In this document: positions 17,880 through 48,798 of the stretch, one piece after another
Layout of the letters: the number at the start of each line of letters is the position of its first letter
Numbering within the stretch: the stretch's first letter is position 1
Virus record (IMG/VR): IMGVR_UViG_3300010399_000003
Span: 1 to 48,852 of that record
Direction: 5' to 3' (one strand)
DNA: 48,852 nucleotides
Source: a virus
The notes under the pieces: generated by a model
Told to the model about the DNA's origin: nothing
The model's database searches: none
Seen by the model: only the letters and a program-made list of their open reading frames with translations
Position numbers and translations under genes: made by a program

Positions 17880-17885
17880 AGGAGC

Positions 17886-18784: not shown

Positions 18785-19068
18785 TGGAAATGTTCAAGCT
18801 GCGTATCACGAATGTCGATATGGATGGCTACTGCGGCCGAACACACCACCCGGCGAAAAGCGACGAGGGCCTCGTGGTCGTTCCGTTGGGCATGGACGGG
18901 TGCTGGGCCGGTGAGTCATCCTACAATCCGTTGCTTGACGGTGGTCAAGCGGCGAGCGTCAAGCAGGGTTTGGATCAGGAATGGCATGAAATCTGCTGGA
19001 CCTGTCTGACCGAAGACGGCCGCACGCTCGAGCTCATGAACCATGAAGTGGAGCTCGTCCATGGCTGA
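18781..19068 (+). CDS. hypothetical protein
   Basis: ATGATG overlap with the upstream stop. Confidence 0.5.
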   Translation: MMEMFKLRITNVDMDGYCGRTHHPAKSDEGLVVVPLGMDGCWAGESSYNPLLDGGQAASVKQGLDQEWHEICWTCLTEDGRTLELMNHEVELVHG

Positions 19069-19318
19069 AGAACGTCGCACACCGCAAACAATCGAATTGG
19101 ATTGTCCTCCTGGCGATCCGCGGCCCGGTGATCTCATTGAACAAGTCATTGAGGGCACCGGTCTGCCGCTGCGCGACGCGGTCAGCCGGTTCTTCGGCAA
19201 CTGGACGTGGAATTACGAAGATGTTTCCCACGAGAAGTGGATGGAAATCCGTCCGATCTTAAAGCAGCGCATTACCGCGCTCTACGAGTCTGGCAAAATT
19301 CGATACGGGAGTTGGTGA
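19061..19318 (+). CDS. hypothetical protein
   Basis: ATGGCTGA overlap with the upstream stop. Confidence 0.45.
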   Translation: MAEERRTPQTIELDCPPGDPRPGDLIEQVIEGTGLPLRDAVSRFFGNWTWNYEDVSHEKWMEIRPILKQRITALYESGKIRYGSW

Positions 19319-19521
19319 TGGCGAATCGTTACGAAGTGGTTGTCGGCAACGTCGGAACGGTATATGATGGGTCGAGTCTGGATGCGACGTTGAAAGTGTT
19401 CAAGGAATACCAAGACCAATCGAAGAGCGGCGTCGGTCGTGCAGCCGGCGAGGATGTCACGGTGCTGAAGAATGGCACCGTGCGTTGGGATTACGATGGT
19501 AAAAGTCGGAGGCTTCGCTAA
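19318..19521 (+). CDS. hypothetical protein
   Basis: TGATG overlap. Confidence 0.45.
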   Translation: MANRYEVVVGNVGTVYDGSSLDATLKVFKEYQDQSKSGVGRAAGEDVTVLKNGTVRWDYDGKSRRLR

Positions 19522-19817
19522 TGCCTATCGAACATAACAAGAGCGGAAGCACGACGCTCACCGGCGACTCAATCGATTTCTTCCGGCTGGCTATGCTCAA
19601 GTCGGCGGTCGGCTTGGAGTTGAAAGGGATTCGCGTGACGCGCGGTCCGGTCGTCTGGAAGCGGGTCAAGAACGAATTCAACCTGAAAGCCAAAACCAAA
19701 AAGGAAGTCTATCAGTGGCTCTGCGCCGAGGTCGAACGGTTGAAGGCGTTGCAAGAGCACGTGGTTCACGAAGACGGTCGGGTCAAGCGCGAAGTCGGCG
19801 GGAAGGAGATTCAGTGA
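19521..19817 (+). CDS. hypothetical protein
   Basis: TAATG overlap. Confidence 0.5.
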   Translation: MPIEHNKSGSTTLTGDSIDFFRLAMLKSAVGLELKGIRVTRGPVVWKRVKNEFNLKAKTKKEVYQWLCAEVERLKALQEHVVHEDGRVKREVGGKEIQ

Positions 19818-19876
19818 AATTGAAGAAGCAGTTGGATCGGCTCAGTCGGCCAATCAAGATCTATTGAGCGGTCCGA

Positions 19877-20095
19877 GTGGCCTTCGGTCGGAAGGTCCCA
19901 AACGGATGGCTCCCGGTGTTCAGTGTGGACACGGTGGCTGAGGCGCGTCGGCTGATTACGTTGGCCTGTCCGATGGATGACAGCGGCAACTACTATGCTC
20001 GAGAACTTGCCGAAGAACAGACGCTCGACAACTTGCAGAAGTTCGGCGATAAGTTGGCGCTGGCTTATGCGCATATGAAGAGGATGAATCCATGA
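19877..20095 (+). CDS. hypothetical protein
   Basis: 72-aa ORF. Confidence 0.45.
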   Translation: MAFGRKVPNGWLPVFSVDTVAEARRLITLACPMDDSGNYYARELAEEQTLDNLQKFGDKLALAYAHMKRMNP

Positions 20096-20556
20096 ACATC
20101 ACGCACGCCGACCACGGGTTGGCTCCTGAACACCTCGCGTTTATTCAGCAGTGCATTCTCGATCATACGGAGCAACTGGGTTTGACCGGCTTCCTCCTGA
20201 CCACCGTGACAATGCCGGATTGGTTGCCGACGCTCGACTGTGGGTTGCATGGTCCGCGGATGGGTGATCCGGTGGTTCCGGAAAACGACGTCTTCTACCA
20301 TGTCCGTGGTTCCCGAAAGTGGGCGTCTCGGTTGTGCGACCGTCCGGCCCGACCGAGTCATCAGATGACGATCATCGCGGCGCTGGATGTGTCACTGAAA
20401 ACGGTCAACGTCATCACGGCATTCGGCGGTCCGTTGGCGCCGAAAGAACCCGGCGATCCGACGTTGATGACGATGGATGAAATTCTCGAATCGCGGAAGT
20501 TCTGGTCCGAGCACGCGCTCAGTGGTGCTCGCTTTGGAGATGGAGGACGAGCGTAA
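20092..20556 (+). CDS. hypothetical protein
   Basis: ATGA overlap. Confidence 0.5.
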   Translation: MNITHADHGLAPEHLAFIQQCILDHTEQLGLTGFLLTTVTMPDWLPTLDCGLHGPRMGDPVVPENDVFYHVRGSRKWASRLCDRPARPSHQMTIIAALDVSLKTVNVITAFGGPLAPKEPGDPTLMTMDEILESRKFWSEHALSGARFGDGGRA

Positions 20557-20756
20557 TGGAAAACGTGAAGCGACCCACGGTCAAACTTGTCGGTGCCGAC
20601 GGCAACGTGTTCAACATCATCGCGCTGTGTAAGGTCGCGGCGCGCAAATCGGGATGGACGAAAGAGAAAATCGATGCGCTGGTTCAGGATCTGATGCACA
20701 GTCGCGATTACGACGACGTCTTGGGCAAGGTCATGGAACAATTCGACGTGGAGTAG
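20556..20756 (+). CDS. hypothetical protein
   Basis: TAATG overlap. Confidence 0.5.
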   Translation: MENVKRPTVKLVGADGNVFNIIALCKVAARKSGWTKEKIDALVQDLMHSRDYDDVLGKVMEQFDVE

Positions 20757-20781
20757 ACAGATTTCCAAACTTAGGTCAATC

Positions 20782-21051
20782 ATGATGAAAAAGATTTTCT
20801 TCCTCGCGGCTGGCGCCGGATTCATGGCGCTGGCCATCGCGACCTGTGTGCAGGGAACACAGCAAGCATCACAATTACAGGCGGAGAAGCCGACGGTCGT
20901 GGTGCCGGATTGGCGACTGGTCGGCACTTTGGAAAACAGCGCAGGGCAACCAGCTGTCGCGCTGTGGTTCAATCGCCTCACGCGCACATGCTTGGCTGTC
21001 GGTGTTGATGGGACGGTGACGAAATTGTGGGATAGTGATTGTGAGGAGTAA
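20782..21051 (+). CDS. secreted or lipoprotein-like small protein
   Basis: N-terminal signal-peptide-like MMKKIFFLAAGAGFMALAIATC with a lipobox-like AIATC. Preceded by the GATTTCCAAACTTAGGTC motif. Confidence 0.55.
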   Translation: MMKKIFFLAAGAGFMALAIATCVQGTQQASQLQAEKPTVVVPDWRLVGTLENSAGQPAVALWFNRLTRTCLAVGVDGTVTKLWDSDCEE

Positions 21052-21264
21052 ATGCTGAATCTGACTATCGGTGCCACTTACATCGTCCGACCAGGTGATC
21101 ACTTCGAGTTAGTGCTGCCGGATGGCACGACGCTGAGTGTCGAGCAAACGCAAGATGACTTTTCCATCATTCATACGAATGACGAAGTCGCGTATCGCAC
21201 GCCGACGAGTCAATTCGCGAAAGAGAACGAAGCAGATCAACCGCGTGTGACGGGTCGGAAGTAG
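21052..21264 (+). CDS. hypothetical protein
   Basis: TAAATG junction with the upstream gene. Confidence 0.45.
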   Translation: MLNLTIGATYIVRPGDHFELVLPDGTTLSVEQTQDDFSIIHTNDEVAYRTPTSQFAKENEADQPRVTGRK

Positions 21265-21327
21265 GAGCTAGAAAGGTGGTCATCGTGACCACCTCGCCCG
21301 AATCAACGGGCCTGAGGAGGTTCCTGC
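21262..21327 (+). promoter_or_regulatory. conserved intergenic cassette copy E
   Basis: TAGGAGCTAGAAA, then hairpin GGTGGTCA-tcg-TGACCACC, then GAATCAACGGGCCTGAGGAGGTTCCTGC, then ATG. Confidence 0.6.
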
Positions 21328-21618
21328 ATGGAAGTGGGACAGTTCATGAAGTTGGAAGGATACGATCAGGTGGCGAAGGCCCAGACGGATTATGGGTTCG
21401 TCGGTGTCTATTCCAACAACCACAATTTCCTCTTCGTCGTGACGGTCGAAGAGGAAGCGATGAGCGATGGGGAGGGCATTCACGGCCGCGTCGAAGGTGA
21501 GTATCCGTATCACAGCGACGATGAGCAGGGCGCGGCGGAAATCAGTGGTTGGCGCGATGCGTATGAAAAGGCGCTCATGCAGTTGGTCCAATTGACGATG
21601 AGGTTCACCCATGAGTGA
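21328..21618 (+). CDS. hypothetical acidic protein
   Basis: Follows the conserved cassette and leader. Confidence 0.5.
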   Translation: MEVGQFMKLEGYDQVAKAQTDYGFVGVYSNNHNFLFVVTVEEEAMSDGEGIHGRVEGEYPYHSDDEQGAAEISGWRDAYEKALMQLVQLTMRFTHE

Positions 21619-21844
21619 GCAGAAATCGGTGACAGAATCCGAGCGTCGCACGTTAGGACTCGTCATGGCGCTGCTCGAGACGATCAAGGAAACCGGAGCA
21701 CAAGGCGCGCCATCCGGTGTGTGCTATACGGCGTTCATGATGCACGGTATATCCTACGTCGAATATCTGAAACTCGTCGATATCGCGTTGCGGACCGGCA
21801 AGGTCCGTCAGTCCGCCAACTGTTTCTATTGGATTGGAGAATAA
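21611..21844 (+). CDS. hypothetical protein
   Basis: Overlapping start. Confidence 0.5.
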   Translation: MSEQKSVTESERRTLGLVMALLETIKETGAQGAPSGVCYTAFMMHGISYVEYLKLVDIALRTGKVRQSANCFYWIGE

Positions 21845-21846
21845 TC

Positions 21847-22272
21847 ATGTCAAAGCCGATGCTGAACCTCAAGATTAACGTGAAGGAAGAGAACGTCAAT
21901 CGCGCCTGCACGCGGAACTCGCACTGCTGCATGATCGCCGACGCCGTTCGGGATCGTCTGAAGTGGGCGACGTTCATCGAAGTAGATGCACAGTCGATTC
22001 GCTTCAACGATCGGAAGAAAGGCATCCGCTACATCTACCTGACTCCACCGGAAGCACAGAAAGCCATCGTGCTCTTCGACCAGGGAGTCAAAGTCAAGCC
22101 GTTCAGCTTCCACCTGTCACAGGGATTCATGAAGACGCGGGTGATGCGAGCACGTCAGAAGAAAGCGAAGAAGACGTCGCGCGAATACAAGAAGGCGAAT
22201 CCGACGAAGAAGTCGACGAAGCGGACTCCGGCGTTCATTCGGCAGTTCGGTCTCCGCGGTCTGACCAAGTAG
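21847..22272 (+). CDS. hypothetical protein with a Lys/Arg-rich C-terminus
   Basis: ATG 2 nt after the upstream stop; C-terminal KKAKKTSREYKKANPTKKSTKRTP. Confidence 0.5.
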   Translation: MSKPMLNLKINVKEENVNRACTRNSHCCMIADAVRDRLKWATFIEVDAQSIRFNDRKKGIRYIYLTPPEAQKAIVLFDQGVKVKPFSFHLSQGFMKTRVMRARQKKAKKTSREYKKANPTKKSTKRTPAFIRQFGLRGLTK

Positions 22273-22283
22273 GAGCATTTCCA

Positions 22284-22787
22284 ATGTTCAATCAGTGCAC
22301 CTGCGTGATGCTCGATGCTCCGGTCGACGACATCCCATGCGAATTTTGCGCGACGATGATCTGGGCAGCGGAACTCGAAGCGAAGATCAAGGCGCTACCG
22401 ACTCATGACGATCTGGAAGACGCGAAGATGGATCGTTCTGAGATTGAGGACGCGGTTGATGACGTCCTCAAGGACAGTTACGTCAAGGAAGAAGATCTCG
22501 AAACCGAGTTCGAACGATACATCAAGGACATCGACCTCGTTGACCGAGAAGATCTGAACGACTACGTGCTCGACTCGGAACTCGAAGAGAAGATCAGCGA
22601 AGCGCTGAACGATACCGATCTCGTGCGCGATGTGGCGGCTGGCGCGGCGGAAGGCGCGATGCGTAATCTGAATCGCTTCGCGACGAAACAGGAAGTCGTC
22701 GACATCGCGCTCGAAACGCTCAAGACGGCAATCCAAAATATGCCGTTCTGGACACGGCTTCGTTTGCTGTTTGGGCGGTCGGCATGA
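22284..22787 (+). CDS. hypothetical acidic protein
   Basis: Start at MFNQCT preceded by TAGGAGCATTTCCA; rich in Asp and Glu. Confidence 0.5.
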   Translation: MFNQCTCVMLDAPVDDIPCEFCATMIWAAELEAKIKALPTHDDLEDAKMDRSEIEDAVDDVLKDSYVKEEDLETEFERYIKDIDLVDREDLNDYVLDSELEEKISEALNDTDLVRDVAAGAAEGAMRNLNRFATKQEVVDIALETLKTAIQNMPFWTRLRLLFGRSA

Positions 22788-23020
22788 TCGAGAAATTTTC
22801 GGTCTGCCAGTGGTTCGACGACGGTCAGTACGATTACGAACTTCGCTACGTTCCTCTAGAACGAGCAGTCACGCGCGCCATGGGGATCGCCCACAGTGTG
22901 GGCGGTCGCCTTGGCACAACCGTCCGAGTCATCATCACTGATGGTGATGACTCGATTGTTTGGGAATGGAAACATGGTGAGGGCATTGTGTTCCCACCGG
23001 AACTGAAAGGTGCCCACTAA
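22784..23020 (+). CDS. hypothetical protein
   Basis: ATGA overlap. Confidence 0.45.
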   Translation: MIEKFSVCQWFDDGQYDYELRYVPLERAVTRAMGIAHSVGGRLGTTVRVIITDGDDSIVWEWKHGEGIVFPPELKGAH

Positions 23021-24537
23021 TGGGACACTTCACAATCGCCAAACCGACGCACGAGCAACTCGCCATTCGTGACGAGTTCATCCATGGTCGGAAACCGTTC
23101 ATGGTCGTTGCTCGTGCAGGTGTTGGAAAGACCACGATGTCCTTCGATGGCATCGAACATTGTCCGGAGGTGCAGCGCGGCTGGGTGCTCTATCTCGCGT
23201 TCAACAAGAAGATCGAGATTGCCGCGAAAGAGAAAAACGGCGTCATCGTCGTCCGTGGGAAAGATGTGGGCACCCCATTGATTCCGCGATTGGAAATCAA
23301 GACCATTCACAGCACCGGCCTGCGCTTTATCCGAACTCGATGGCGTGATTGTGGAATCAGCTTCGAAGGAGAACGCGCGGATGCACTGACGGCAAGTGTG
23401 TGCGGAGCAACCGTGCCGGAAGACGTCGCGCGATTGGTCACGAAACTGCATACGAAGGCTCGTGAGATTAATCCGATGGCGCGTGCTATTGGCGATCTCA
23501 CAGACTTGGCCTTGCAGTTCGAATGCGAGCCAGACGAGGAGCATCAGATCAAAGGGTTTAATCTGGATTATGTCGAAGCACGCGCACTCGAAGCGATGGA
23601 GTTGGCGGCCATGAAAGAACCGTCAATCATCGATGGCGCCGACATGATCTTCCTGCCAATCCGCAATGGATGGTTGCGGCCGACGTGGGATTTTGCACTC
23701 GTCGATGAAACGCAGGATATGACTCCAGCCCAACTGCTCATCGCCAAAGGGATTGGAAAAGGTCGCCTCGGATTGGTCGGCGATGACCGGCAAGCGATCT
23801 ATCAGTTCCGCGGCGCGGGAGTCGGCACGATGAGTCGGCTTCAGCAGGAACTGCAAGCGAAGACGTATCCGATGACGGTCACCTTTCGGTGCGGAAAGAA
23901 GATCGTGGAACTCGCGCAGAATTTTGTTCCCGATCTGCAAGCGGCGGACTCCAATCCGGACGGTGAGGTGCTGGAAGGCTCAGTGGAGCAGATGTTGCAG
24001 ATGGCAGCACCCGGCGATTACGTGCTGAGTCGCCTGAATGCTCCACTCATGCCGATTGCGATGTCGTTCCTGAAAGCTGGCAAACGAGCGAAGATCAACG
24101 GCACGGATATCGGTCAGTCGCTCGTAAAGTTAGCGCGCAAATTGATGCGACGTGGTGATGAGTCCGTCGAGAACTTCATCACGCGCATCATGTTGTGGCG
24201 CGATAACCAAGTGTCGCGGCTCATCGCGGCGAAGCGGCCGCAACGCTACATCGATTTCGTCAACGATAAAGCGGAGATGATCATCGACCTTTGTGAAGAC
24301 ATGGGGTCGGTATCGGCTGTCATTTCGAGATTGGAAACACTGTTCATCGATGCTGGTCAGGGTGATACTGGCGTTATCCTGTGCTCCTCGGTCCACAAGG
24401 CGAAGGGTCTGGAAACCGATCGAGTATTCGTGCTCCGCGATTCACTTCGGTCACATACGGAAGAAGAATTGAATATCCAATACGTCGCGTTCACTCGAGC
24501 GAAAACCACGCTCATGCTGGTTAGCGGAGGTGTATAG
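23020..24537 (+). CDS. SF1 DNA helicase (Dda/RecD/UvrD-like)
   Basis: Walker A ARAGVGKTT, motif II LVDETQDM, and C-terminal SVHKAKGLETDRVFVL (motif V/VI). Confidence 0.8.
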   Translation: MGHFTIAKPTHEQLAIRDEFIHGRKPFMVVARAGVGKTTMSFDGIEHCPEVQRGWVLYLAFNKKIEIAAKEKNGVIVVRGKDVGTPLIPRLEIKTIHSTGLRFIRTRWRDCGISFEGERADALTASVCGATVPEDVARLVTKLHTKAREINPMARAIGDLTDLALQFECEPDEEHQIKGFNLDYVEARALEAMELAAMKEPSIIDGADMIFLPIRNGWLRPTWDFALVDETQDMTPAQLLIAKGIGKGRLGLVGDDRQAIYQFRGAGVGTMSRLQQELQAKTYPMTVTFRCGKKIVELAQNFVPDLQAADSNPDGEVLEGSVEQMLQMAAPGDYVLSRLNAPLMPIAMSFLKAGKRAKINGTDIGQSLVKLARKLMRRGDESVENFITRIMLWRDNQVSRLIAAKRPQRYIDFVNDKAEMIIDLCEDMGSVSAVISRLETLFIDAGQGDTGVILCSSVHKAKGLETDRVFVLRDSLRSHTEEELNIQYVAFTRAKTTLMLVSGGV

Positions 24538-24869
24538 TGCCTGGATTCAGGGAACTCACCGTCAAAGCATTGTTGAAGAAACTCGAAGACACCAAGATTC
24601 CGCGTTACATGCATCACACGCTCGCCTACTACATCGCCGAAGGCAAACCGACTGGTCATTTCCTGACCGCGGTGCTCACGAACGATTTGAAGGAAGCGTG
24701 CAATCGGGCGGACGACGATAACAAGGATCGGCTCTACGATTACGTGTTCTTCCTCTACAACAACGCGCCGTCCGCGTGCTGGGGTTCACCGGAAAACGTG
24801 GCCGAGTGGCGGAAGGAAACAGCCGTGAAGCAGGAGATCGCTGCCGCTGCTGCAGCGGAGGGTTCATGA
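24537..24869 (+). CDS. hypothetical protein
   Basis: TAGTG/ATG junction; 110 aa. Confidence 0.5.
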   Translation: MPGFRELTVKALLKKLEDTKIPRYMHHTLAYYIAEGKPTGHFLTAVLTNDLKEACNRADDDNKDRLYDYVFFLYNNAPSACWGSPENVAEWRKETAVKQEIAAAAAAEGS

Positions 24870-24870
24870 T

Positions 24871-25074
24871 ATGGTCATTCGAGTGCGGTTCGCAAAATTC
24901 GGTGCGCATTTCCATTGTCGGGTGTTCACAGCCAAGCGCAAGAATCAATCGTTCGGCAAATGCGGCGACTTGACCTTCGACGAGCGTGAATGGCCGGAGG
25001 TCCGGGAGATTCTCGAAAGTAGATCGATTGAAGTCTTGCCAGATGATGATTCCCACATCTTTAGTGGGCCGTGA
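24871..25074 (+). CDS. hypothetical protein
   Basis: 67-aa ORF. Confidence 0.4.
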   Translation: MVIRVRFAKFGAHFHCRVFTAKRKNQSFGKCGDLTFDEREWPEVREILESRSIEVLPDDDSHIFSGP

Positions 25075-25081
25075 GGTGTCA

Positions 25082-25231
25082 ATGCATAAAGTCTATCCGG
25101 AGATCATCGTCAAGCGATGGCTCCTGTCAATCGTGAATTGTTACGGACGTCGACAATTGTACGCAGCGCTGTGTCGTCGCTGGCGTGTCGCACAAGAACG
25201 TCGTATGAGAGGACAAGGGTGGCGAAGATGA
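25082..25231 (+). CDS. possible small basic protein
   Basis: Internal ATG of ORF 24986..; weak. Confidence 0.25.
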   Translation: MHKVYPEIIVKRWLLSIVNCYGRRQLYAALCRRWRVAQERRMRGQGWRR

Positions 25232-25443
25232 AGTTCGCAGTCACAGCCGTTGCCATCAGCCGGAGGACCCGGCGGCGGATGGGGAAAGCGAAAACCGAGG
25301 TCATTGATACTGCGCACAACGAGTTGTTCATGCAACTCGAAGATCCGAAAGAAATCGAAGAAGCCTACGAACACTGGTGGAATTGCCTCAATCCCAATTC
25401 GCCAGACACAGTCAAAGTGGTTGACGTCAGGAAGGTGGCATGA
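25228..25443 (+). CDS. hypothetical protein
   Basis: ATGA overlap; MKFAVTAVAISRRTRRR... Confidence 0.4.
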   Translation: MKFAVTAVAISRRTRRRMGKAKTEVIDTAHNELFMQLEDPKEIEEAYEHWWNCLNPNSPDTVKVVDVRKVA

Positions 25444-25739
25444 TGCCTCGCGTCGCACCGCACACATTTCCAAAAATCTTTCTGTCAATCGTGGAACAAC
25501 TCCACGACATGGGCGCAGTGAATCGAGAAACACCGTTGCCTGAATTTGTCGACATCGATTTCTTCACCGAAGAAGAATTGCAAGCCACCGACGATGCATT
25601 GTCGGAATTGTCAACTGACGAATTCGAGACGCTCTGCATCGGCGAAGCAACCGAAGCCGAGGCAATCGCCGCAAGAAGTCCCGCGCTGACACGTGCAGAT
25701 CAAATCATGCTCTACGTCTTCGACGGGACAAAGCCATGA
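25440..25739 (+). CDS. hypothetical acidic protein
   Basis: ATGATG overlap. Confidence 0.45.
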   Translation: MMPRVAPHTFPKIFLSIVEQLHDMGAVNRETPLPEFVDIDFFTEEELQATDDALSELSTDEFETLCIGEATEAEAIAARSPALTRADQIMLYVFDGTKP

Positions 25740-26212
25740 TCATCGGCGTATCGGCCACGTCGCGCGGATTGACCGCGCGACAGAGTGCAACGATCTGGTG
25801 CTTGTTCGATGAATTCCGAATTTCGGTGCTGCATTTCGGCGACTGTGTGGGTGGCGATGCGCAGTTATTTCGTATCGCTCAGCAGATGGGTGCGTGGACG
25901 GTGGCACATCCACCGTCCAACCCCAAAGCGCGTGCCTTCTGCAAAGCCGATCAGACTATGGATCCTGTGCCGTATCTCAAGCGTAATTGGCACATCGTCT
26001 ATGCCTGTGACGGCTTCATCGGTGCGCCGAAGGATTTCCATCAACCGAAGAACCTGCGCGGTCAGGGCACATGGACAACAATCGGATATGCGCGTAAGCG
26101 CCAGAAGGAGATGAACGGGATTCCGAGAATTTGGTTGGTCATGCCGGATGGGACATTTCGCGAGGAGAAGTTCAATGCTGGTGACGCCGGAAACGCATCG
26201 CATCGAGATTGA
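25736..26212 (+). CDS. hypothetical protein, possibly with a Rossmann-like N-terminus
   Basis: ATGA overlap; IIGVSATSRGLTARQ. Confidence 0.5.
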   Translation: MIIGVSATSRGLTARQSATIWCLFDEFRISVLHFGDCVGGDAQLFRIAQQMGAWTVAHPPSNPKARAFCKADQTMDPVPYLKRNWHIVYACDGFIGAPKDFHQPKNLRGQGTWTTIGYARKRQKEMNGIPRIWLVMPDGTFREEKFNAGDAGNASHRD

Positions 26213-26414
26213 AGCTCATATCGCGCCACCAATGCAACTGGCGGTGACAATTCCGCTGGCGATTGACGGAAGACACTCGCTCTTCGACGGTTATACCCTC
26301 TATGTGGCACTCGGCGGATTCCACTCGGAACGTCGCGAATCGCGACGTGTCCTGAAAGCCATTGCGAAAGCGATTGGCGAACATCTCAAAACTCTTCCCA
26401 GTGTGGAGGTCTAA
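26175..26414 (+). CDS. hypothetical protein
   Basis: Start uncertain (26148 or 26175). Confidence 0.35.
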   Translation: MLVTPETHRIEIEAHIAPPMQLAVTIPLAIDGRHSLFDGYTLYVALGGFHSERRESRRVLKAIAKAIGEHLKTLPSVEV

Positions 26415-26416
26415 AC

Positions 26417-27604
26417 GTGACGAAGATCGACGCGGTCATTCCAATTCATCCTGATGATGTGCTGCTGTTCAACGAAATCCGGAGTGCGATGCAATCAGTC
26501 GCCAAGGAATACAAGCTGCCGTTGAAGTCGATTCAGGGATTTCCAATGCCGGAATCCGGGATGGCAGACCGGCTCGGCGATTGTTCACACGACGGACATA
26601 TTCGTTTGGTCATGCGCTGCACGGTGAACGGCGAGTGGTGTAGCGCACCGTTGAGCCCGAAAGAAATCTGGGACACGGCGGCGCATGAGCTCGCTCACTT
26701 ACGCCACTTCAATCACGGTATTCAGTTCCGCGAGTTTGAGTTAGAGCTCCAAGAGGCTCTGTCCAATCGGAACGAAGATCATCGGCAAAAGCTGCTCAAG
26801 AAGCTCGTGAAGATTCAGAATCTGCGTGAAAGCGAAGCGCAGCTGGGCAACACGGAAGCAGCGGAATCGTTCGCCGCAGCGATCAATCGGATGCTAGTCG
26901 AGAACGAACTCAACCCGTCAGACATCGATTACGCACGTGCCGCAGATCACGATCCGGTCATCGAAGTGCGATGCGATCCGAAAGATTGGGTCTTCAAACG
27001 TGATGATCATGGGCCGTCGAAAGAATCGTATCGGAAAAAGACGCGCGTCGCATGGCAAGAATCGTTGGCGCGTATCGTCGCGAATGGAAATCTGTGCACG
27101 TTCTTGGTCGCGCGTGATACGAACGTCATCTGGTTTGTTGGAACCAAATCACACGCTACCGTCGCGTCGTACATCTACAGCATCCTCGTGCCGAACGCGG
27201 ATTACATGTCCGACAAGGAGAATTACTACTTCAAGCTGAAGTGCAATCGGGAAGGAACGAAGCACCTTGCTCGCGGATTCCGCGGTGCGTGGCTCGATGC
27301 GTTCGTCAAGCGTGTCGAAGAGCGACTGAACGAAGAGCGCAAGGCGGCAGTCAGACAGGCAGCAGCGGACGTGCCAGGCGGTCAATCGCAGGCGCTGATG
27401 CGTCTGAGCGGCGCGCTCTTGAAAGCACAGAAATACGTCGAAGACAAATTCACAGGCAAGAAAAACACGAGCATCAAGGCACTCGGTAGTTGGGCGAAAT
27501 ATCATCGTCAGGGCACCGAGGCTGGACGAGCAGCGGCAGATCGCATGCCGATCGGTCGTCGTGGCATGGATTCGGCAACAGAACGCAAGAAGTTAGGAGA
27601 ATAG
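26417..27604 (+). CDS. protein with a YgjP/DUF45-like HExxH metallopeptidase motif
   Basis: WDTAAHELAHLRHFNHGIQF resembles the YgjP/WLM/SprT-type HELxHLxxxNHs motif; GTG start with GGAGG upstream. Confidence 0.55.
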   Translation: MTKIDAVIPIHPDDVLLFNEIRSAMQSVAKEYKLPLKSIQGFPMPESGMADRLGDCSHDGHIRLVMRCTVNGEWCSAPLSPKEIWDTAAHELAHLRHFNHGIQFREFELELQEALSNRNEDHRQKLLKKLVKIQNLRESEAQLGNTEAAESFAAAINRMLVENELNPSDIDYARAADHDPVIEVRCDPKDWVFKRDDHGPSKESYRKKTRVAWQESLARIVANGNLCTFLVARDTNVIWFVGTKSHATVASYIYSILVPNADYMSDKENYYFKLKCNREGTKHLARGFRGAWLDAFVKRVEERLNEERKAAVRQAAADVPGGQSQALMRLSGALLKAQKYVEDKFTGKKNTSIKALGSWAKYHRQGTEAGRAAADRMPIGRRGMDSATERKKLGE

Positions 27605-27606
27605 CT

Positions 27607-27825
27607 ATGACCGTAATCCGCAAGGACACATACACGTGCTATTTCCTCAACAGCAATACGGAAAAGACATTTCCAAGCCTCGCAGAAGCACGGGCTGCTG
27701 CCGAAGCGTATTGCGGCAACAATAGTTACGCCAAACCGCTTCCAAGAGACAACACGTTTCTCTACGGACCGGGCGACGGGACAACGTCTGTCATGGTTCG
27801 TCAAGACGTAGAATTCGTAGATTAG
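27607..27825 (+). CDS. hypothetical protein
   Basis: ATG after GGAGAATAGCT; 72 aa. Confidence 0.45.
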   Translation: MTVIRKDTYTCYFLNSNTEKTFPSLAEARAAAEAYCGNNSYAKPLPRDNTFLYGPGDGTTSVMVRQDVEFVD

Positions 27826-27834
27826 GAGTCATCA

Positions 27835-28026
27835 ATGGAAGAACAGATTCGCGAGCTCACAGCTGAAGCGTCGACACTCGGATGGCGACCAGGTTATCGA
27901 CCAGATTCGATTGTGCATCAGGGACTCGTCTTCAACTTGCAAGACACTGATGTCTCCATCGATGGTGATGTCATCGCGTGGATTTACATGGCTCCTGGAA
28001 CCAAATTGACGGTGTTCAATGACTGA
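27835..28026 (+). CDS. hypothetical protein
   Basis: AGGAG SD. Confidence 0.4.
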   Translation: MEEQIRELTAEASTLGWRPGYRPDSIVHQGLVFNLQDTDVSIDGDVIAWIYMAPGTKLTVFND

Positions 28027-28363
28027 TGTGAAACAAATTCAACGCGACCTCCACGACGCATTAGAATTGATTGACGTCTTGCAACACGCGACGCAACTAC
28101 ACGGATACGAGCGACAACCCTACTATCGGCAGATTCAGCTCCTCCTGACTCGGGTGCAAACACTGCTCCTCCTGACTCAGACACAGGAAAAATTGAAAGT
28201 CTACGTCATCGCGAACAAACAGACTGACGCGATTGCAACCGGACGAATCTTCAGCTCGGCAGAAGCCGCTGATAAAGGTCTGATGAAGTTGGTCTCATGG
28301 GTGGCTTCGGAAGCCGACATCCGACGCATGTTTGAAGTAACCGAAGTGGAGGTCGAGTCATGA
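28019..28363 (+). CDS. hypothetical protein
   Basis: ATGA overlap. Confidence 0.5.
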   Translation: MTDVKQIQRDLHDALELIDVLQHATQLHGYERQPYYRQIQLLLTRVQTLLLLTQTQEKLKVYVIANKQTDAIATGRIFSSAEAADKGLMKLVSWVASEADIRRMFEVTEVEVES

Positions 28364-29400
28364 CTCAACTCGCACAACCACCCGGTGTGGCAGCACCGTG
28401 GCAAGTCGCCATGGATTCCCACATGAGCGCATTGAAACTAATCAATCATCTCACGAATCATTCGAATGATCTTGATTCGCGGTGGGCGGTCGATAAATTG
28501 ATCATGGAAGACGCCGTGCCGTTTTCGTGGTCCACCGAATCGATCGAAGCAGTCCTGGCCGCGAGTCGAACAATTCCACCGGATACGGTGCTGAACGTCT
28601 GGAATCTCGATACGAATGCCGCGTGGTGGTATTTCGACCAGGAACTGCCGTTTCCCACGATCAACGGCATCGACGGAATTCCGCCAGAGATCGCATCCAA
28701 AACTGGAGTCAAAGCCATGAGCATCGGATGGGTGTTGCATGCGCCTGAGGTTGCCAAGTTTCCAGCTGGCACCGATGTGCGAATTGTGGAACGCGCAATC
28801 CGGGAAGGTCCACCGAAGAAGCGCATGCTCGCAGTCGCGTCGTGGCTGTTAGACCCACTCAAACGATGGACCATGATTCCATCGCAAACGATGCAATGGG
28901 AGTTGAATGATTCACTCGAAGAATTGATGCGCAAATCGAAAACCAAGCATCAACACTTATACGGACCAGGAGGCAAGTGGGAGCGCGTCGCGCATGTCCA
29001 TGAAGACGTGTTCATGAATGCGGCGGAAGGAATGGCTCGATTCATTTTGGCTGGCTTAGCATGGTTGAATCAGAAGGTGCCGATTCTAGTTCAGTCGGAA
29101 GGGCACATCGAACGGCATCGACGTAAGGAATATCAGAAGAAAGTCAATCCGAGTATCACGCATGTGAAAGTCATTTCGCTGCGTCGGGTGGAGCGCCAAA
29201 AGGCGGCAGACCCCGATACAGCACCCGGCGCAAAGCGCGAATATTCTGTCCGATTTCCCGTGGACGGTCACTGGCGCAATCAACCTTACGGACCGAAGCG
29301 CCATGAACGGCGTTTGATCTGGATTTCGCCATTCATCAAAGGTCCTGCGGATAAACCGCTCCGCGTGCCGGAGCACAAAGTCTACAAGGTGAATCGATAA
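28360..29400 (+). CDS. hypothetical protein (346 aa)
   Basis: ATGA overlap; long clean ORF. Confidence 0.55.
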   Translation: MTQLAQPPGVAAPWQVAMDSHMSALKLINHLTNHSNDLDSRWAVDKLIMEDAVPFSWSTESIEAVLAASRTIPPDTVLNVWNLDTNAAWWYFDQELPFPTINGIDGIPPEIASKTGVKAMSIGWVLHAPEVAKFPAGTDVRIVERAIREGPPKKRMLAVASWLLDPLKRWTMIPSQTMQWELNDSLEELMRKSKTKHQHLYGPGGKWERVAHVHEDVFMNAAEGMARFILAGLAWLNQKVPILVQSEGHIERHRRKEYQKKVNPSITHVKVISLRRVERQKAADPDTAPGAKREYSVRFPVDGHWRNQPYGPKRHERRLIWISPFIKGPADKPLRVPEHKVYKVNR

Positions 29401-43214: not shown

Positions 43215-45418
43215 CAGTTTAAATCCCCATGAGCAATATCACTGTGTTGATCACCATGTGGCGTATCGGTATGCAACACATCCGTGTGAGCAACGTCGCC
43301 GTGCGCAGTATCAGCATGTGCTGAATCGGAATGTGCTGTATCTGAGTGAACACCGTCTGCATGAGCCGCAATATCAGAATGTGCTGTATCAGAATGTGCT
43401 GTATCGCCGTGACTAACGTCAGCGTGCGCCACGTCAGAATGTGTGTTGACTAAGGCGACATCCGAATGCGCAGTATCCGAATGTGAATCTACGTGTGCCG
43501 AGTCACTATGTGAATCACTGTGCGAATCGGTATGCGAATCACCATGCGCAATGTGACCAGGTGAATCGAAAAATTCTTCACGATCAACGTGCGAATCAGA
43601 GTGAGAATCTTCGTGTGCGATATCAGAGTGAGCTACGTCGGAGTGGGAATCAGAGTGAGCTACGTCGGAGTGCGCCGTATCACCATGCGTATCACTATGT
43701 GCAGTATCAGTATGCGCGCGGTCTGAATGAGCAGCGTCGCCATGAGCAACGTCTGAATGAGCGACGTCACCGTGCGTTCCAGCATCTGCATGTGCAGCAT
43801 CACCATGGGCAACGTCCTGATGTGCATCATCAGTATGCGTATCGGAATGAGCTATGTCTCCGTGTGCAGTATCCTGATGCACGTCAGAATGAGCCACATC
43901 TGTATGACCAACGATCAAACCAAATCCAAGTCGCGTTGATCCATCAAGTTCGGAAAGTCCCTCGATTTCCAATAACCAAAATGCCGTTGAATCAGCAGGG
44001 ACAAGTGTAAATTCGGTTCGGAGTGTATTATCTTGTTCCGTCTCAGTGATTGAATTAATGTAGAATGAACGCGTGATACCAGTCACGTAATCCGTCAGAC
44101 CAATACGATCACTGATGTCACGATCAAGGCTTCTTGCTAATTCTAATGCATCGCTATTCAAGCCAACAAAACGAACGAGACCCGAAACTTGTGTTATCGG
44201 AAAGGCCATAGAAAAAACGAAATATTGCGCAGCTTCCAATCCAAATCGTGGATCAGCTTGATACACCATATCAATCTGTTGCACGATTGGACCATACTGT
44301 GCAATACTCGTATCGTCTTTCCACTGCATGACAGTCGCACCATAATCATACAATGGTTTCCCGCGTTGTTGTAGTTTCGTCAAATAGCCAGTCACACCTC
44401 CGTTGTACGTCACAGAAAATTCTGTCGCGTTTCCAGAAAAACCAATCGTCACCGACACAAAACCTGTCAGATTCGTTCCGCTTCCATCACTCGCCGTATT
44501 TGCTGTGTAATCGGTAGTCGCTGTGATTGGTGCTAAATCAGCAGCGCCAACACGAACGTCTGGATTATCTGGATCTGTCCAAGGCCCAAGAATTGTAATA
44601 GTCTGGCCAGGGATTAGCTCCATTGGTTGTTTCATCGAGAACATGACAACGTAGCTGGAGCCAGGCACCCGAGGATGAACAGTTGATTGAACCTTGTTGA
44701 TCAGACTAGTACGATCTCGATCGGCGACAAACCCAAAATGATCATCATACACATCAGCATTAGTTGCACTGATTGCACGACGGGTTCTGGATTCATACAC
44801 AACAGTTCCGTCACCACGTATCCAGCAACGATCTAAACCACTAATGCATAGACGATAAATTTCATCGCGAAGCACTGTCTGTTCATCTCGTGTACGATCC
44901 AGTGAATACGGAAAAATATCAGCACTCAAATCCATTTCCAATGCGTCAGGCTGGCTGACGATCGGAATTGAATCAATGAGGACCTGGAAAATCTCGTCAC
45001 CTCGTTTGTTGATTTGTACTGGAAGATTTTCTAATCTCGTTCGCTGTGCAACATCCATCCAATCGACAACTTCACACGATACCGTACGAGGACCGTGCCG
45101 ACCAGTGATTGGAGTGATTGAATCTAACACGCCAGTAAATCGGATGATACTGCCGATTCGATAGCGCACACGGATATTCAATTCAAATCCAGATCTCCTA
45201 TTTTCATGATCTGGACTGTAATATCCGATTAATCCAACACTGTTTCGTTCGCTATTGTCGAGTGAAAAGGACAGAGTGCCGATATCGGCTACAAGATCAA
45301 GAATGGAAGAACCAGGGAGACCACGATGCCACGTGATGCCAGGACCACGAAGCACATCGGTAACGGTCGTCCAACCATTACCACGGCCGCTGAATTCCAT
45401 TTCAATGATGCCACTCAT
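43214..45418 (-). CDS. tail protein (Dit-like position after TMP) with a C-terminal His-Xaa-Asp pentad-repeat domain of about 230 aa
   Basis: 734-aa ORF whose start overlaps the TMP stop. The last 230 residues hold about 46 HxD motifs at roughly 5-residue periodicity (TAHSDVAHSDSHSDVAHSD...). Confidence 0.75.
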   Translation of the reverse strand: MSGIIEMEFSGRGNGWTTVTDVLRGPGITWHRGLPGSSILDLVADIGTLSFSLDNSERNSVGLIGYYSPDHENRRSGFELNIRVRYRIGSIIRFTGVLDSITPITGRHGPRTVSCEVVDWMDVAQRTRLENLPVQINKRGDEIFQVLIDSIPIVSQPDALEMDLSADIFPYSLDRTRDEQTVLRDEIYRLCISGLDRCWIRGDGTVVYESRTRRAISATNADVYDDHFGFVADRDRTSLINKVQSTVHPRVPGSSYVVMFSMKQPMELIPGQTITILGPWTDPDNPDVRVGAADLAPITATTDYTANTASDGSGTNLTGFVSVTIGFSGNATEFSVTYNGGVTGYLTKLQQRGKPLYDYGATVMQWKDDTSIAQYGPIVQQIDMVYQADPRFGLEAAQYFVFSMAFPITQVSGLVRFVGLNSDALELARSLDRDISDRIGLTDYVTGITRSFYINSITETEQDNTLRTEFTLVPADSTAFWLLEIEGLSELDGSTRLGFGLIVGHTDVAHSDVHQDTAHGDIAHSDTHTDDAHQDVAHGDAAHADAGTHGDVAHSDVAHGDAAHSDRAHTDTAHSDTHGDTAHSDVAHSDSHSDVAHSDIAHEDSHSDSHVDREEFFDSPGHIAHGDSHTDSHSDSHSDSAHVDSHSDTAHSDVALVNTHSDVAHADVSHGDTAHSDTAHSDIAAHADGVHSDTAHSDSAHADTAHGDVAHTDVLHTDTPHGDQHSDIAHGDLN
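43217..43915 (-). repeat. imperfect coding tandem repeat (about 15-nt period) encoding the HxD pentads
   Basis: The DNA shows reiterated gaatgtgctgtatc / gagtgagctacgtcg-type units. Confidence 0.8.
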
Positions 45419-48400
45419 GCCGTCCGCAATCCGACTAAGCCAGTAGCGATCGCACGAGACATAGCACGCGGCAGCGATGTTTTCAAATCTGAGCGAAGAC
45501 CGTTGATAGAATCGACGACTTCCTCATTCGACGGCATCTCCGGGAAACCACCCTGATTCAGTTGACGCAAACCTTCATTGCCGAGTCGTTCCATGCCTTT
45601 CGTTGTAACAATGCCCTCGCCAGGTGTAAGCATCGTCGCCACTGTATCCGAACCTCTCGCAGGCCACGGACCTTCGAGCACCGGTCCGCCAACGGCCAAG
45701 TATTGCACACCGGATGCCGTGACGCGACCGCCACGCGATGCGTAATCAGGGATGTCCGGCGCAATGTAATGACCTTCAATCTGGATATCGAAATCCTTGG
45801 GGATTTTATCCAGTTCCGTCTTCATATTCGCGGCAGTCGTTTTAGTCTGTTGCTCCATTGCACGAAGACCTTCAGGGATCTTCGCACCGAGCGCGTCACC
45901 GATTGCCATCAGCACGTCAAGGATCTTTTGATTATCCGATTTCGCCTGTTCACCGATGAGCCCGGATTGCACGCCTTGATCAATCAATGCTTGCGTCGAT
46001 TCATCGACGCTGTAGCCGTAGCGCTGCTGCATCTCCCAGATTGTTTGGAGATCACCACGCATCGCAAGCATCACAGTGTCACTGGAATAACCCTGTGCCA
46101 CCAACGCTTCTTCAGTCGCGGCAATCTGACCGGCCAGACCTGAGAATGTCTCCTGATTCAGGATACCAGCGTTGCTCAGACCGATCATACCAGCGGTGTA
46201 GCCTTCAATGGATTCGAGTGCCGGACCCGCGATTTCATCATTCGCGAAATCAACCATGTTCTTGATGAAATCGAATGCAGCACCTCCAGTGTAACCAGTC
46301 GCTTCCAACTGCGCCTGCAACAATTCGACGTTTGGACCAATCGCCCTGACCGACTCGATAAATGATTTGCCAGCCTCCATGTTCGCCGAGACAATACCAG
46401 CCAACGAACTAGCAACTGCACTCGCGGCTTCTTGTGAATGAAGTCCGGTCACTTCGATAATTCGATCATTGTTCTCGATCTGATCATGCAACGCCATCAA
46501 GCCCTTGTATTCAGCTTCGTTCTTCGCAATGATCTGATCAATCTGGATTTGAATTGCCATTTTATGCCCAAGATCCGCCTTGGCATACTTGGCTTCGAGA
46601 TCCATGATTTTCGCGATGTCTAGGTATTCATCCTGATCCATTTCCGCGCGGCGCTTGGAGAATTCCGCTTGTTGTTTCGCCCGATCTGCGTATGCATTAC
46701 CGGTGATTCTCAATGCCGCACTGAAACCAGTCTGCGCATTAGTTAGCTGACCGGATACATATGCGGCGATCTCTTTCGATTGAGTTCCGTATTGTCCGTT
46801 CAGCTTGATGATTTCAACAAGCTGTTTATCCAACATCCCAAGATTGTTGGTACCAGCTTGTGCAAATTGCGCAAAGTTTTCATCCATGACTTTCGCACCT
46901 TGTGCGATCGTCATTTGATGTGTTTCAATCAGTGAGAACACATCGTGGAATCTATCCGTCATTTGTGCTAGATTATCTTTTGAGAGACCTCCGGCTTCCT
47001 TGATGATATCAGATAAATGCGATATTGCCGCGGCCTGCCGACTTCCTCCGAAATCTTCCTTTGCAGATTTTGCAATCGCCTTCGCAAGATCGTCTGAAAT
47101 CTTCTCACCAAAATCCCGCCCGACTTCTTCCGCAGCCTTGGCCCACGCAGGTTTTCCACGAATGATGCCAACCACCAAACCAGCCGCTGCGCCGACAGCC
47201 ATTCCATAAGGCCCGAACATCGAACCAGCCTGAGCCCCAGCCATCATACCACCAAGTGCGTTACCGGCGGCAGATGAATGTGCGGAAGTCGCGTCCCAAA
47301 CCGCAATTGCACCTTGAGCGATACCAGCTGCGGTTTGTACACCAGCAGCGAACTTCTGCATCCTGTCGGCATTATCATTGAAAATCGTGCTCAGCGGTCC
47401 GAAGTGACCACCAAGTTCATGACCATCAATACCAAGTTGTTTTGATTGCTTATGCGCACTTTCAAGTCCGACAACAACTTGTCCAACTCCGCTGAGTATC
47501 GCACCCATCATCCCGCCGGTCACTTGACCAAGTTTGGTGAAATACTCGGAGATCGTCGCAAGTGACTCAGATGCCCGTCTTTCTGCAGCTGCCAATTTAT
47601 CGAGTTTGATTCTCAGTTCGTCGATTTCTGTAGACTTACGACCGACATCTTCCAAACTTAGCGCCATGTTATAGAAGCCTTGTAATGGCGCAGGAATACT
47701 CCGTTCAACCATTTTAAGTCCAGCAGCAACTTCCACCTGCGTCCGAACCCATTTCAATTCAGTCTCGTCGACTTCTAAGAGTTTTGAATGGAATCCCTTC
47801 AATTCACCGAATTGAATCTTAACGAGCTGCGCACCAATTTTCTTTTGCTCAGCCCATTGTTTTTCTGCATATACAACGCTTTCAACAATGGGTTTTGTTA
47901 CGCTGTATGCCGCGGCGATTTCAGCAATTGATTTACCACGTGCATGATCAAAGGCGATTCCTTCATATAACGTCGCGCCAATTTTGGCCATGACGTTTTG
48001 ATAATCGCCAAGTTTTGCATTGTAATTCGTCAAAGCCGCTTCGATTTTTGTCTGTTCGGCTGCGGATTTCTTGAGTTCCGTGATGTAGGCTTTCGTTGCC
48101 GCTTCTGTCGCACCAGTGACTTTGAGGATTTCCTTTATCGACTCGGTGTTCATAGCCACGCGAGTATATTCTTTTTGTGCTTCAGTCAGCGGCGTTAACG
48201 CAGCATCTTTCAAAGATTTCAATTTCTGTGACATCAAATCGGCACCAGCCGCACTGTTCGCCATGGATGCTGCAACAGCTTGTAGTGCAGGATGCCCAGC
48301 CAGAGCCTCTTTATTTACTCCGGCGATAGCAACTCCAACCTGTTTCATTAATGGCGTCGAAAAATTATTCGCTTTTGCCGTCGCCATCACTGAACGTTCA

Positions 48401-48798
48401 AGTTCGTCGAGTTGCGTCGCCGTGTGTCCAGAATTACTTGATAGATCTGAAATCGCTTCTTGTAAATCTTTCGCCCCACCGTGCGCTTTACGAAACTGTT
48501 CGTTATTGAAAGCAATTGCTTCGGCGTAGCGTTTGGCTTGATCTGTTTCGGTTGACGACCAACCATCTTTCAGAGCTTTATTCAATACGAATTGTTTGGC
48601 TGCAGCTGTTTCTGTTTGTAATTGTGCTTCTGCAGTCGCCTGCCGCCAACTTGTATAAGCCAAAGTCACGCCAGCAATCGCAGCCGCGATTGCCACAAAT
48701 GGATGTGCCAAAATGATATTGTAGAGTTTGGTAAAAGCTGCACCGAGATTCGCCAAAGCTGCTTCACCGAGTGTTCCCCATCCAAACGCTTGGGTCAT
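45415..48798 (-). CDS. tail tape-measure protein (possibly 5'-truncated by the window edge)
   Basis: 1127 aa, alpha-helical and rich in Ala, Gln and Lys, with Gly-rich hydrophobic segments (GGMMGAILSGVGQVVVGL; GAAAGLVVGIIRG). The frame stays open upstream of the ATG to the window end. Confidence 0.8.
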   Translation of the reverse strand: MTQAFGWGTLGEAALANLGAAFTKLYNIILAHPFVAIAAAIAGVTLAYTSWRQATAEAQLQTETAAAKQFVLNKALKDGWSSTETDQAKRYAEAIAFNNEQFRKAHGGAKDLQEAISDLSSNSGHTATQLDELERSVMATAKANNFSTPLMKQVGVAIAGVNKEALAGHPALQAVAASMANSAAGADLMSQKLKSLKDAALTPLTEAQKEYTRVAMNTESIKEILKVTGATEAATKAYITELKKSAAEQTKIEAALTNYNAKLGDYQNVMAKIGATLYEGIAFDHARGKSIAEIAAAYSVTKPIVESVVYAEKQWAEQKKIGAQLVKIQFGELKGFHSKLLEVDETELKWVRTQVEVAAGLKMVERSIPAPLQGFYNMALSLEDVGRKSTEIDELRIKLDKLAAAERRASESLATISEYFTKLGQVTGGMMGAILSGVGQVVVGLESAHKQSKQLGIDGHELGGHFGPLSTIFNDNADRMQKFAAGVQTAAGIAQGAIAVWDATSAHSSAAGNALGGMMAGAQAGSMFGPYGMAVGAAAGLVVGIIRGKPAWAKAAEEVGRDFGEKISDDLAKAIAKSAKEDFGGSRQAAAISHLSDIIKEAGGLSKDNLAQMTDRFHDVFSLIETHQMTIAQGAKVMDENFAQFAQAGTNNLGMLDKQLVEIIKLNGQYGTQSKEIAAYVSGQLTNAQTGFSAALRITGNAYADRAKQQAEFSKRRAEMDQDEYLDIAKIMDLEAKYAKADLGHKMAIQIQIDQIIAKNEAEYKGLMALHDQIENNDRIIEVTGLHSQEAASAVASSLAGIVSANMEAGKSFIESVRAIGPNVELLQAQLEATGYTGGAAFDFIKNMVDFANDEIAGPALESIEGYTAGMIGLSNAGILNQETFSGLAGQIAATEEALVAQGYSSDTVMLAMRGDLQTIWEMQQRYGYSVDESTQALIDQGVQSGLIGEQAKSDNQKILDVLMAIGDALGAKIPEGLRAMEQQTKTTAANMKTELDKIPKDFDIQIEGHYIAPDIPDYASRGGRVTASGVQYLAVGGPVLEGPWPARGSDTVATMLTPGEGIVTTKGMERLGNEGLRQLNQGGFPEMPSNEEVVDSINGLRSDLKTSLPRAMSRAIATGLVGLRTA

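Follow-up and report, generated by a model that had tools for sequence, protein, structure and literature searches.

A His-x-Asp repeat tract on a predicted phage tail-tip hub as a candidate substrate of the adjacent radical SAM/SPASM enzyme

What is a long run of His-x-Asp (HxD) motifs doing at the end of a phage tail protein? The question is raised by the IMG/VR virus record IMGVR_UViG_3300010399_000003, of which positions 1 to 48,852 were analysed (hereafter the window). A 734-aa open reading frame (ORF) on its minus strand (43214..45418) ends in a tract of 45 HxD motifs (residues 505-732; 43223..43906), followed by Leu-Asn and the stop codon. An earlier note on this DNA had read the tract as a metal-binding fibre tip and had set enzymatic modification aside; in our analysis the central clue is the maturase encoded next door, a radical S-adenosylmethionine (rSAM) enzyme with a SPASM region. 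The locus combines the tract with a hub fold, an rSAM/SPASM signature, coupling of the genes in one operon and a tight co-occurrence of tract and enzyme across genomes. The tract is probably the substrate of this enzyme, judging from sequence and gene context. As the best overall explanation, by analogy with characterised enzymes, we propose that a His-Asp ring is closed in each H-x-D of the hub tract, to which we give roughly even odds (about 0.5).

The tract and the protein that carries it

The tract contains 46 His and 47 Asp in 232 residues; Asp stands at +2 of 45 of the 46 His, and His at -2 of 45 of the 47 Asp. The 502 residues before it contain no HxD and five His. Based on 20,000 rounds of shuffling the tract's own residues with the composition kept, 9.3 ± 2.4 HxD motifs are expected (maximum 20) against the 45 observed. 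Searched in all frames, the 48.8-kb window has just one other cluster of at least four HxD, in the C-terminal tail of the rSAM enzyme. Concerning the spacing, 29 of the 44 motif-to-motif distances are five residues, and the others are four (11), six (2), nine (1) and 15 (1); the longest uninterrupted run of five-residue spacings is seven. The tandem His/Asp array described in the earlier note is therefore real, with 45 motifs on the minus strand, while its strict pentad is not. The 15-nt DNA repeat over some 700 bp claimed in the same place was overstated: short sub-arrays exist, and Tandem Repeats Finder reports nothing more on the tract DNA (2-4 copies, with periods of 12, 15, 27 and 63), the 29 units of 15 nt have a mean mutual identity of 60%, and the longest exact repeat is 24 nt. 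Since the DNA units are degenerate, the periodicity is maintained at the protein level.

Across 139 tract proteins, the only fixed residues are His(i) and Asp(i+2). The position between them is taken by Ser, Gly, Thr, Ala, Val, Gln, Asp, Glu or Asn, while Pro, Lys and Arg hardly ever occur there; the spacers vary and are one or two residues long (spacings of five, 2535; of four, 1183; other, 1093). Because only these two positions are constrained, the tract resembles an aromatic-X-X enzyme recognition pattern rather than a fold. The number of motifs is 21-53 in the hub family and reaches 93 elsewhere, so the proposed variation in repeat number is found among distant relatives; no polymorphism is seen among near-identical genomes: in three other assemblies the 2205-nt hub gene shows 0 mismatches, and the rest of the operon one or two. 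Slippage-driven hypervariation is not supported, the DNA being too degenerate for easy slippage and the copies identical in other assemblies. The 698-aa protein of a relative is reported on 18 contigs.

HxD tracts also produce long shadow ORFs on the opposite strand. A plus-strand ORF in the window (43483..44010) was rejected as a gene, being the shadow of the minus-strand hub gene. The reverse is seen in the related locus L011/L012, in which a plus-strand ORF with 28 motifs (8936..9904) lies just 5' of the rSAM gene and gene callers place a minus-strand gene of 202 aa. Because of such shadows, HxD proteins are probably under-annotated in public data.

The part of the protein before the tract (residues 1-504; 43907..45418, minus strand) was assigned as a baseplate hub or Tal-like domain by AlphaFold2 (AF2) modelling and Foldseek. 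The AF2 monomer, built with 57 homologues as input, has a predicted local distance difference test score (pLDDT) above 90 for residues 1-480. Against the PDB, the N-terminal part matched baseplate hubs with E-values of 1.6e-12 to 1e-6 and target-normalised template modelling (TM) scores of up to 0.73: those of the Agrobacterium phage 7-7-1 and Milano baseplates, Mu gp44 and the MuSo2 43-kDa tail protein, and further 80alpha, T5 pb3, T4 gp27, VgrG and the hubs of contractile injection systems. The identity came from the fold search alone: no family for the protein is found in Pfam, NCBIfam or PHROGs, and its sequence profile gave nothing useful against the PDB. With the entire 734-aa sequence as query, tblastn gave no match in 50,697 phage records, probably because of low-complexity filtering and divergence; the query that did find relatives was the rSAM enzyme. 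The gene directly 5' of the hub gene encodes the tape-measure protein (45415..48798, minus strand; phrog_167), which is cut by the end of the window and is 1503 aa long on the whole contig; its stop overlaps the hub start (ATGA). Based on the gp27-like fold and the position directly after the tape measure, the 734-aa protein is modelled as a tail-tip hub of the Tal/gp27 type with the HxD tract as its C-terminal extension, and by analogy it would be trimeric. The location at a fibre tip given in the earlier note is thus upheld, with a gp27/Mu gp44/VgrG/Tal-like hub as the carrier. The C-terminal extension of a gp27-like hub is expected to point away from the tube.

The tract begins where tail-less homologues end. 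About two thirds of the 120 listed homologues of the hub domain stop at '...SELGxTTxLG[FY]', and exactly at this point the window protein runs on with 'GLIVGHTD...'; in about one third of the 120, 21-53 HxD motifs follow, and the ending is usually 'HGDxN'. The terminal H-G-D-x-N with the stop codon is near-constant in the hub family (P0121-P0171); it could serve as a point at which the enzyme docks or as a signal to stop.

The tract is not restricted to hubs. It is found on the hub domain in 44 of 139 representatives and on a repeat domain like that of gp13 of the Thermus phage Cumys in 16; the other carriers include a lambda-J-like Phage-tail_3 protein with an internal tract and a DUF2341 protein. 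In bacteria the tract is carried by TAT-signal (twin-arginine-like) proteins and, at the C-terminus, by giant proteins of 900-1850 aa; ten representatives were scanned with Pfam. In P0322 (1107 aa) and P0319 (1238 aa), a long region at the N-terminus or a lambda-J-like Phage-tail_3 domain precedes the tract, and a C-terminal globular domain (DUF2341) follows it. An internal position of this kind indicates the behaviour of a stalk or linker rather than of a terminal cap.

These data bear on the fibre that the earlier note had in mind, an unmodified beta-helix in which ladders of His and Asp stack Fe, Zn or Ni across three chains and to which the rSAM enzyme is irrelevant. Metals are classically bound by His and Asp, and the 2-His-1-carboxylate triad of Fe/2-oxoglutarate oxygenases includes HxD. 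The position of the tract on a presumably trimeric tail-tip hub would also suit such a fibre, as would the strongly acidic character given by its 47 Asp, which favours cation binding. However, spacings of four, five and six residues break the fixed register of a beta-helix, and a tract that also occurs as an internal linker and on unrelated N-terminal domains is not what such a fibre predicts. There is no match to the Pfam Pentapeptide family (E ≤ 0.01), and the AF2 monomer is unstructured over residues 493-734 (pLDDT 34-55), with neither helices nor strands. The pentapeptide-like beta-helix is not supported by these results, and the unmodified metal fibre as a whole appears improbable. Metal binding itself, by the imidazole nitrogens and carboxylates left over, is compatible with cross-linking and could coexist with it.

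Linkage of the tract to the radical SAM/SPASM enzyme

We used an rSAM-alignment scan of IMG/VR and of one genome per species to survey the neighbourhood of the enzyme, which gave 74 viral and 80 genomic loci; pattern scans of the viral data with single proteins had given one locus or none. Loci were counted when they had at least 1.5 kb of upstream flank, and a tract was called at eight or more HxD. A tract is present at 58 of the 64 viral and 58 of the 75 genomic loci (116/139 in total), on the same strand as the rSAM gene in all but two cases, and it lies directly 5' of that gene at 47 viral and 34 genomic loci (81). At some of the loci scored as negative, HxD stretches that are shorter or looser immediately precede the rSAM gene. 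A homologue of the DUF483 domain adjoins the enzyme almost always. As a base rate, an exhaustive phmmer search matched the tract in 292 of 1.84 billion representative proteins; two matches of the tract search (P0302 and P0354) were discarded as perfect simple repeats in proteins with eukaryote-type domains.

A second scan, seeded with the hub domain, is independent of the rSAM enzyme. In all five HxD-tailed hubs (the window and its contig L014, L004 and L170-L172), the rSAM and DUF483/methyltransferase genes follow downstream, in one case with a single gene between. Three tail-less hubs (L010, L013 and L174) have neither an rSAM gene nor an HxD tract; two others (L011/12 and L173) have a separate HxD-repeat protein just before an rSAM gene.

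The same triad is found in the cultured Thermus phages Cumys and phiMa, in which gp13 has 344 aa and 54 HxD and the rSAM enzyme is 49% identical to that of the window. The jumbo phage phiLo, likewise a cultured Thermus phage, has an rSAM enzyme, a methyltransferase and two proteins with 72 and 90 HxD; these HxD proteins are on the strand opposite to the rSAM gene, an exception to the usual co-directional layout, and the rSAM gene is flanked by fragments of IS605 OrfB transposases (6815..7944 and 13807..17155 of L002). Pairs of rSAM and DUF483 genes beside HxD tracts are also seen at bacterial loci (L111, L127, L117, L090, L104, L131, L154 and L161), and L114, from a metagenome-assembled genome of a Nitrososphaeraceae archaeon, has a locus of the same kind. 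Going by these gene neighbourhoods, the rSAM+DUF483/HxD system appears to extend beyond phages, and a prophage origin of the cellular loci is possible.

The enzyme of the window has 434 aa (41910..43214, minus strand) and was assigned by Pfam (PF04055), phrog_1802 and weak full-length NCBIfam matches. Its CxxxCxxC cluster motif (C12, C16 and C19; 43158..43181, minus strand) already lies at residues 12-19, and the enzyme thus lacks an N-terminal RRE, the recognition element of peptides that are made on ribosomes and modified post-translationally (RiPPs). The SPASM region (42228..42494, minus strand) comprises C241, C246-x14-G-x4-C266, C300-xx-C303-x5-C309-x3-C313 and C329 in the alignment, and these cysteines are invariant across 19 rSAM homologues. 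At E ≤ 1e-20 the family numbers 2195 proteins. Neither this rSAM enzyme nor the HxD protein is covered by a model in NCBIfam release 20. The nearest relatives with solved structures are the anaerobic sulfatase-maturating enzyme (anSME; 4K36) and the triceptide synthase ChlB (9GM3). In NCBIfam, the best match, aligned over the full length, is also anSME (TIGR03942; 73.7 bits against a cut-off of 349.45), followed by the dynobactin maturase DynA (68 bits against 450, residues 11-344), with weaker matches to the cyclophane maturases AmcB, YhhB (48 bits against 445), GrrM, XyeB and FxsB as well as to HxsB (28 bits against 370).

The enzyme itself ends in a tail of five HxD (HGDHWD...HAD...HGD...HGD; HGDHWDAPDGYQHAD...HGD...MHGDSD; 41928..42023, minus strand) that is kept in close homologues and is also present in the Cumys and phiLo enzymes. 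Possible roles of this tail are those of a self-substrate, a mimic of the substrate or a metal site.

The partner protein (388 aa; gene 40769..41935, minus strand) overlaps the rSAM gene and consists of a DUF483 domain (residues ~1-245; 41201..41935, minus strand; Pfam PF04467 and alignment) and a minimal class I SAM-dependent methyltransferase domain (residues ~260-388; 40772..41158, minus strand). DUF483 is fused to a minimal methyltransferase of about 125 aa here and in many homologues, and stands alone in Cumys. Six of its residues are invariant or nearly so (C105, C106, H153, C156, C160 and H196; GYPxCC...PHLPCSxxC), a pattern which suggests a metal or catalytic centre; the DUF483 part has no match among solved structures. 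A natural fusion of rSAM and DUF483 (P0055, 705 aa) ties the partner to the rSAM pathway.

Concerning the gene order, the hub stop shares one base with the rSAM start (TGATG), and the partner stop overlaps the start of the next tail gene (TAATG), which encodes 436 aa with a choice-of-anchor R domain (39459..40769, minus strand; phrog_17105). The tape-measure, hub, rSAM and DUF483-methyltransferase genes and this tail gene are all joined by stop/start overlaps, and the maturase genes thus lie inside the tail-assembly operon, with tail genes on both sides.

This linkage is left unexplained by the unmodified metal fibre. It also bears on the idea that the tract is a flexible, acidic and His-rich linker, possibly responsive to pH, while the rSAM enzyme acts elsewhere, for instance on phage DNA. 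The disorder predicted by AF2 agrees with a linker, and in some cyanobacteria rSAM/DUF483 homologues lie near genes for deazapurine DNA modification (PMC11437467). The paper that proposed DNA modification, however, overlooked the HxD repeats in the third gene of the module (PMC11437467). In the window the rSAM enzyme is of the SPASM peptide-modifying type and lies inside the tail operon, with no flanking DNA-modification genes, and the loss of the HxD tail goes together with the loss of the rSAM gene. A role of the module in DNA modification is unlikely, and the linker explanation as a whole seems very improbable. Taken together, the i/i+2 constraint, the free spacers, the portability of the tract, its predicted disorder and the near-obligate rSAM linkage argue for a repeated enzyme recognition motif, and not for a self-folding beta-helix.

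The same phage contains further genes that touch on these subjects less closely. On the 112.8-kb contig (L014), outside the window, a gene for a B12-binding radical SAM protein and three glycosyltransferase (GT) genes (GT2, GT2 and GT4) are found at 1..3328, just 5' of the tail genes, and hint at more modification of virion components. The plus strand of the window carries a replication and nucleotide block (167..29400) with an HNH endonuclease, thymidylate synthase, an RNase T-like exonuclease, an SNF2 helicase, an ATP-dependent DNA ligase and a UvrD-like helicase, which is consistent with a non-contractile-tailed phage of about 113 kb.

Possible chemistry of the tract

Of the reactions that RRE-less rSAM/SPASM enzymes carry out on aromatic-X-X motifs, three-residue macrocyclisation is the best documented. 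Rings from His-C2 to C-beta of residue i+2 were established by nuclear magnetic resonance (NMR) for HtkB (HTK), HaaB (HAA) and YhhB (HNR) (PMC11499958) and for MicB (HAS) (PMC12912966). Based on these precedents, each H-x-D is proposed to close into a ring. The rSAM/SPASM enzyme would work with the DUF483 (+ methyltransferase) protein on the tract; a 5'-deoxyadenosyl radical would take the C-beta hydrogen from each Asp, and the Asp radical would add to the imidazole ring of the His that stands two residues upstream, so that each motif would close as a three-residue macrocycle with a change of -2 Da. Each hub subunit would then carry about 45 small rings in a chain, with one or two residues between rings. 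Such a chain could be rigid, resistant to proteases and heat, and non-globular, and it would project from the distal tail tip; the mechanical role given to it here is argued from analogy. A stiff, heat-resistant chain fits the presence of the system in Thermus phages.

Several points weigh against the His-Asp rings. The chemistry is taken over by analogy only, and the known triceptide precursors are short peptides with a leader, whereas here the motifs form the tail of a folded domain of 500 aa. In the literature we found no characterised example of Asp as the ring partner of His. In HXS, the only His-x-Ser repeat system that has been studied, one motif gains 8 Da, in place of a loss of 2 Da per motif (PMC13128918). 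DUF483 and the methyltransferase could mean different or additional chemistry, and the sole paper on the module proposed DNA modification (PMC11437467). For every named family, the window enzyme also scores far under the curated cut-off, with 31-52 bits against cut-offs of 310-450 for the cyclophane-maturase families (XyeB, GrrM/OscB, FxsB, YhhB and AmcB), and so lies outside the characterised cyclophane synthases.

Some of these points would suit a different reaction on the same substrate. The options are inter-chain His-Asp cross-links that staple the three hub chains; oxidation, epimerisation or the like at C-beta or C-alpha of Asp; a bridge that adds carbon, as was suggested for HXS; and methylation of His or Asp by the fused methyltransferase, in combination with these. 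The co-occurrence evidence serves such chemistry as well as it serves ring closure. The enzyme is closest to anSME, which carries out C-beta oxidation rather than cross-linking; the HXS maturation amounts to +8 Da (+C/-4H) (PMC13128918); and many homologues share with the window the fusion of a SAM methyltransferase to DUF483. On the other hand, the strict i/i+2 pairing of an aromatic with another conserved residue is what marks three-residue macrocyclisation. As the methyltransferase domain is absent in Cumys and at many loci with long HxD tracts, methylation is not the core reaction. We therefore consider a chemistry other than the ring within each motif unlikely, though a serious competitor, and retain ring closure between His and Asp as the preferred explanation.

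In its widest form, the proposal is that in phages and many bacteria an rSAM/SPASM+DUF483 maturase not characterised before turns long HxD tracts on tail-tip and fibre proteins of the virion into 'polycyclophane' chains of tens of His-Asp macrocycles, perhaps metal-binding. We put this forward tentatively, at a little less than even odds.

If the proposal holds, radical RiPP chemistry, whose known examples are small secreted peptides, would build a part of a virus particle. A viral structural protein cross-linked by RiPP-type radical chemistry would be a first, and the fibre, stiffened covalently, would be of a new kind, with a possible route to heat resistance, protease resistance or rigidity of the tail tip. 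It would also give a function to DUF483 and a new reading of the 'rSAM module' of Thermus phages. The idea lends itself to direct testing, as Thermus thermophilus HB8 is a host of both Cumys and phiMa. In full-text searches of the literature, no paper was found that links HxD repeats, phage tails and rSAM chemistry, nor any description of a virus particle cross-linked in this way; a paper on phage N4 that came up as a match was set aside as a citation only.

Comparison with known systems

The hub part of the locus has clear counterparts. In T4 (gp27-gp5), Mu (gp44-gp45) and the Tal proteins of siphophages, as here, a gp27-like hub follows the tape-measure gene. The needles on such hubs, including the spikes P2 gpV and phi92 gp138 with their HxH iron sites, are regular triple beta-helices. 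In contrast, the extension in the window has no predicted structure, an irregular period, HxD in place of HxH and a dedicated maturase.

The enzyme is nearest to two groups of characterised proteins. The anSMEs, its best match in NCBIfam and the PDB, are likewise RRE-less rSAM+SPASM enzymes that abstract a C-beta hydrogen on a protein substrate, but the sulfatase motif Cys/Ser-x-Pro-x-Arg is absent from the tract. DynA, of the daropeptide maturases, is the second-best full-length NCBIfam match and joins the imidazole nitrogen of His to C-beta of the residue at +2; the substrates of this group differ in being short antibiotic precursors with Trp/His-x-Asn/Tyr motifs.

The closest relative in gene content is the 'rSAM module' of Cumys and phiMa, the same three-gene set of an HxD protein (gp13), an rSAM enzyme and a DUF483 protein. 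It differs from the window in that the tract is on a small, fibre-like protein of 344 aa and the partner has no methyltransferase domain. In the published description gp13 is of unknown function, the HxD repeats are unreported and DNA modification is suggested (Viruses 2024; PMC11437467).

The HXS system (HxsA with five His-x-Ser repeats, the rSAM enzymes HxsB and HxsC, and HxsD) shares with the window tandem repeats of His-x-(small polar residue), adjacent SPASM-type rSAM enzymes and a product that is a protein effector and not a small peptide (Nat Commun 2026; PMC13128918). It differs in having Ser instead of Asp, five repeats, two rSAM enzymes and HxsD rather than one rSAM enzyme and a DUF483-methyltransferase, and in being a periplasmic bacterial defence factor, not a phage tail part. 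The hub protein has no NCBIfam match to HxsA and no peptidoglycan-binding domain, and its position 3 is Asp in 45 of 46 cases; PADLOC returned only a generic viperin-like rSAM similarity. Were the proposal true, the hub would mirror the HXS defence, whose His-x-Ser effector blocks the entry of phage DNA, and related chemistry may serve both sides of the DNA-entry step.

The triceptides and the enzymes that form three-residue cyclophanes (3-CyFEs) are the systems on which the ring chemistry is modelled. There, too, an RRE-less rSAM/SPASM enzyme lies beside a repeated aromatic-X-X substrate in which positions 1 and 3 are decisive and His is allowed at position 1. In the window, unlike in these systems, Asp occupies position 3; the motifs number about 45 (up to ~90 elsewhere) against one to five; the substrate is the C-terminal tail of a 734-aa virion structural protein, the hub, and not a leader-core peptide; and DUF483, with or without a methyltransferase, is an obligatory partner. 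A substrate class with ~45-90 motifs on a folded protein and Asp at position 3 would be new for SPASM enzymes and cyclophanes. A SPASM maturase with a repeated aromatic-X-X substrate is known in kind; the substrate class and the biological setting are unprecedented.

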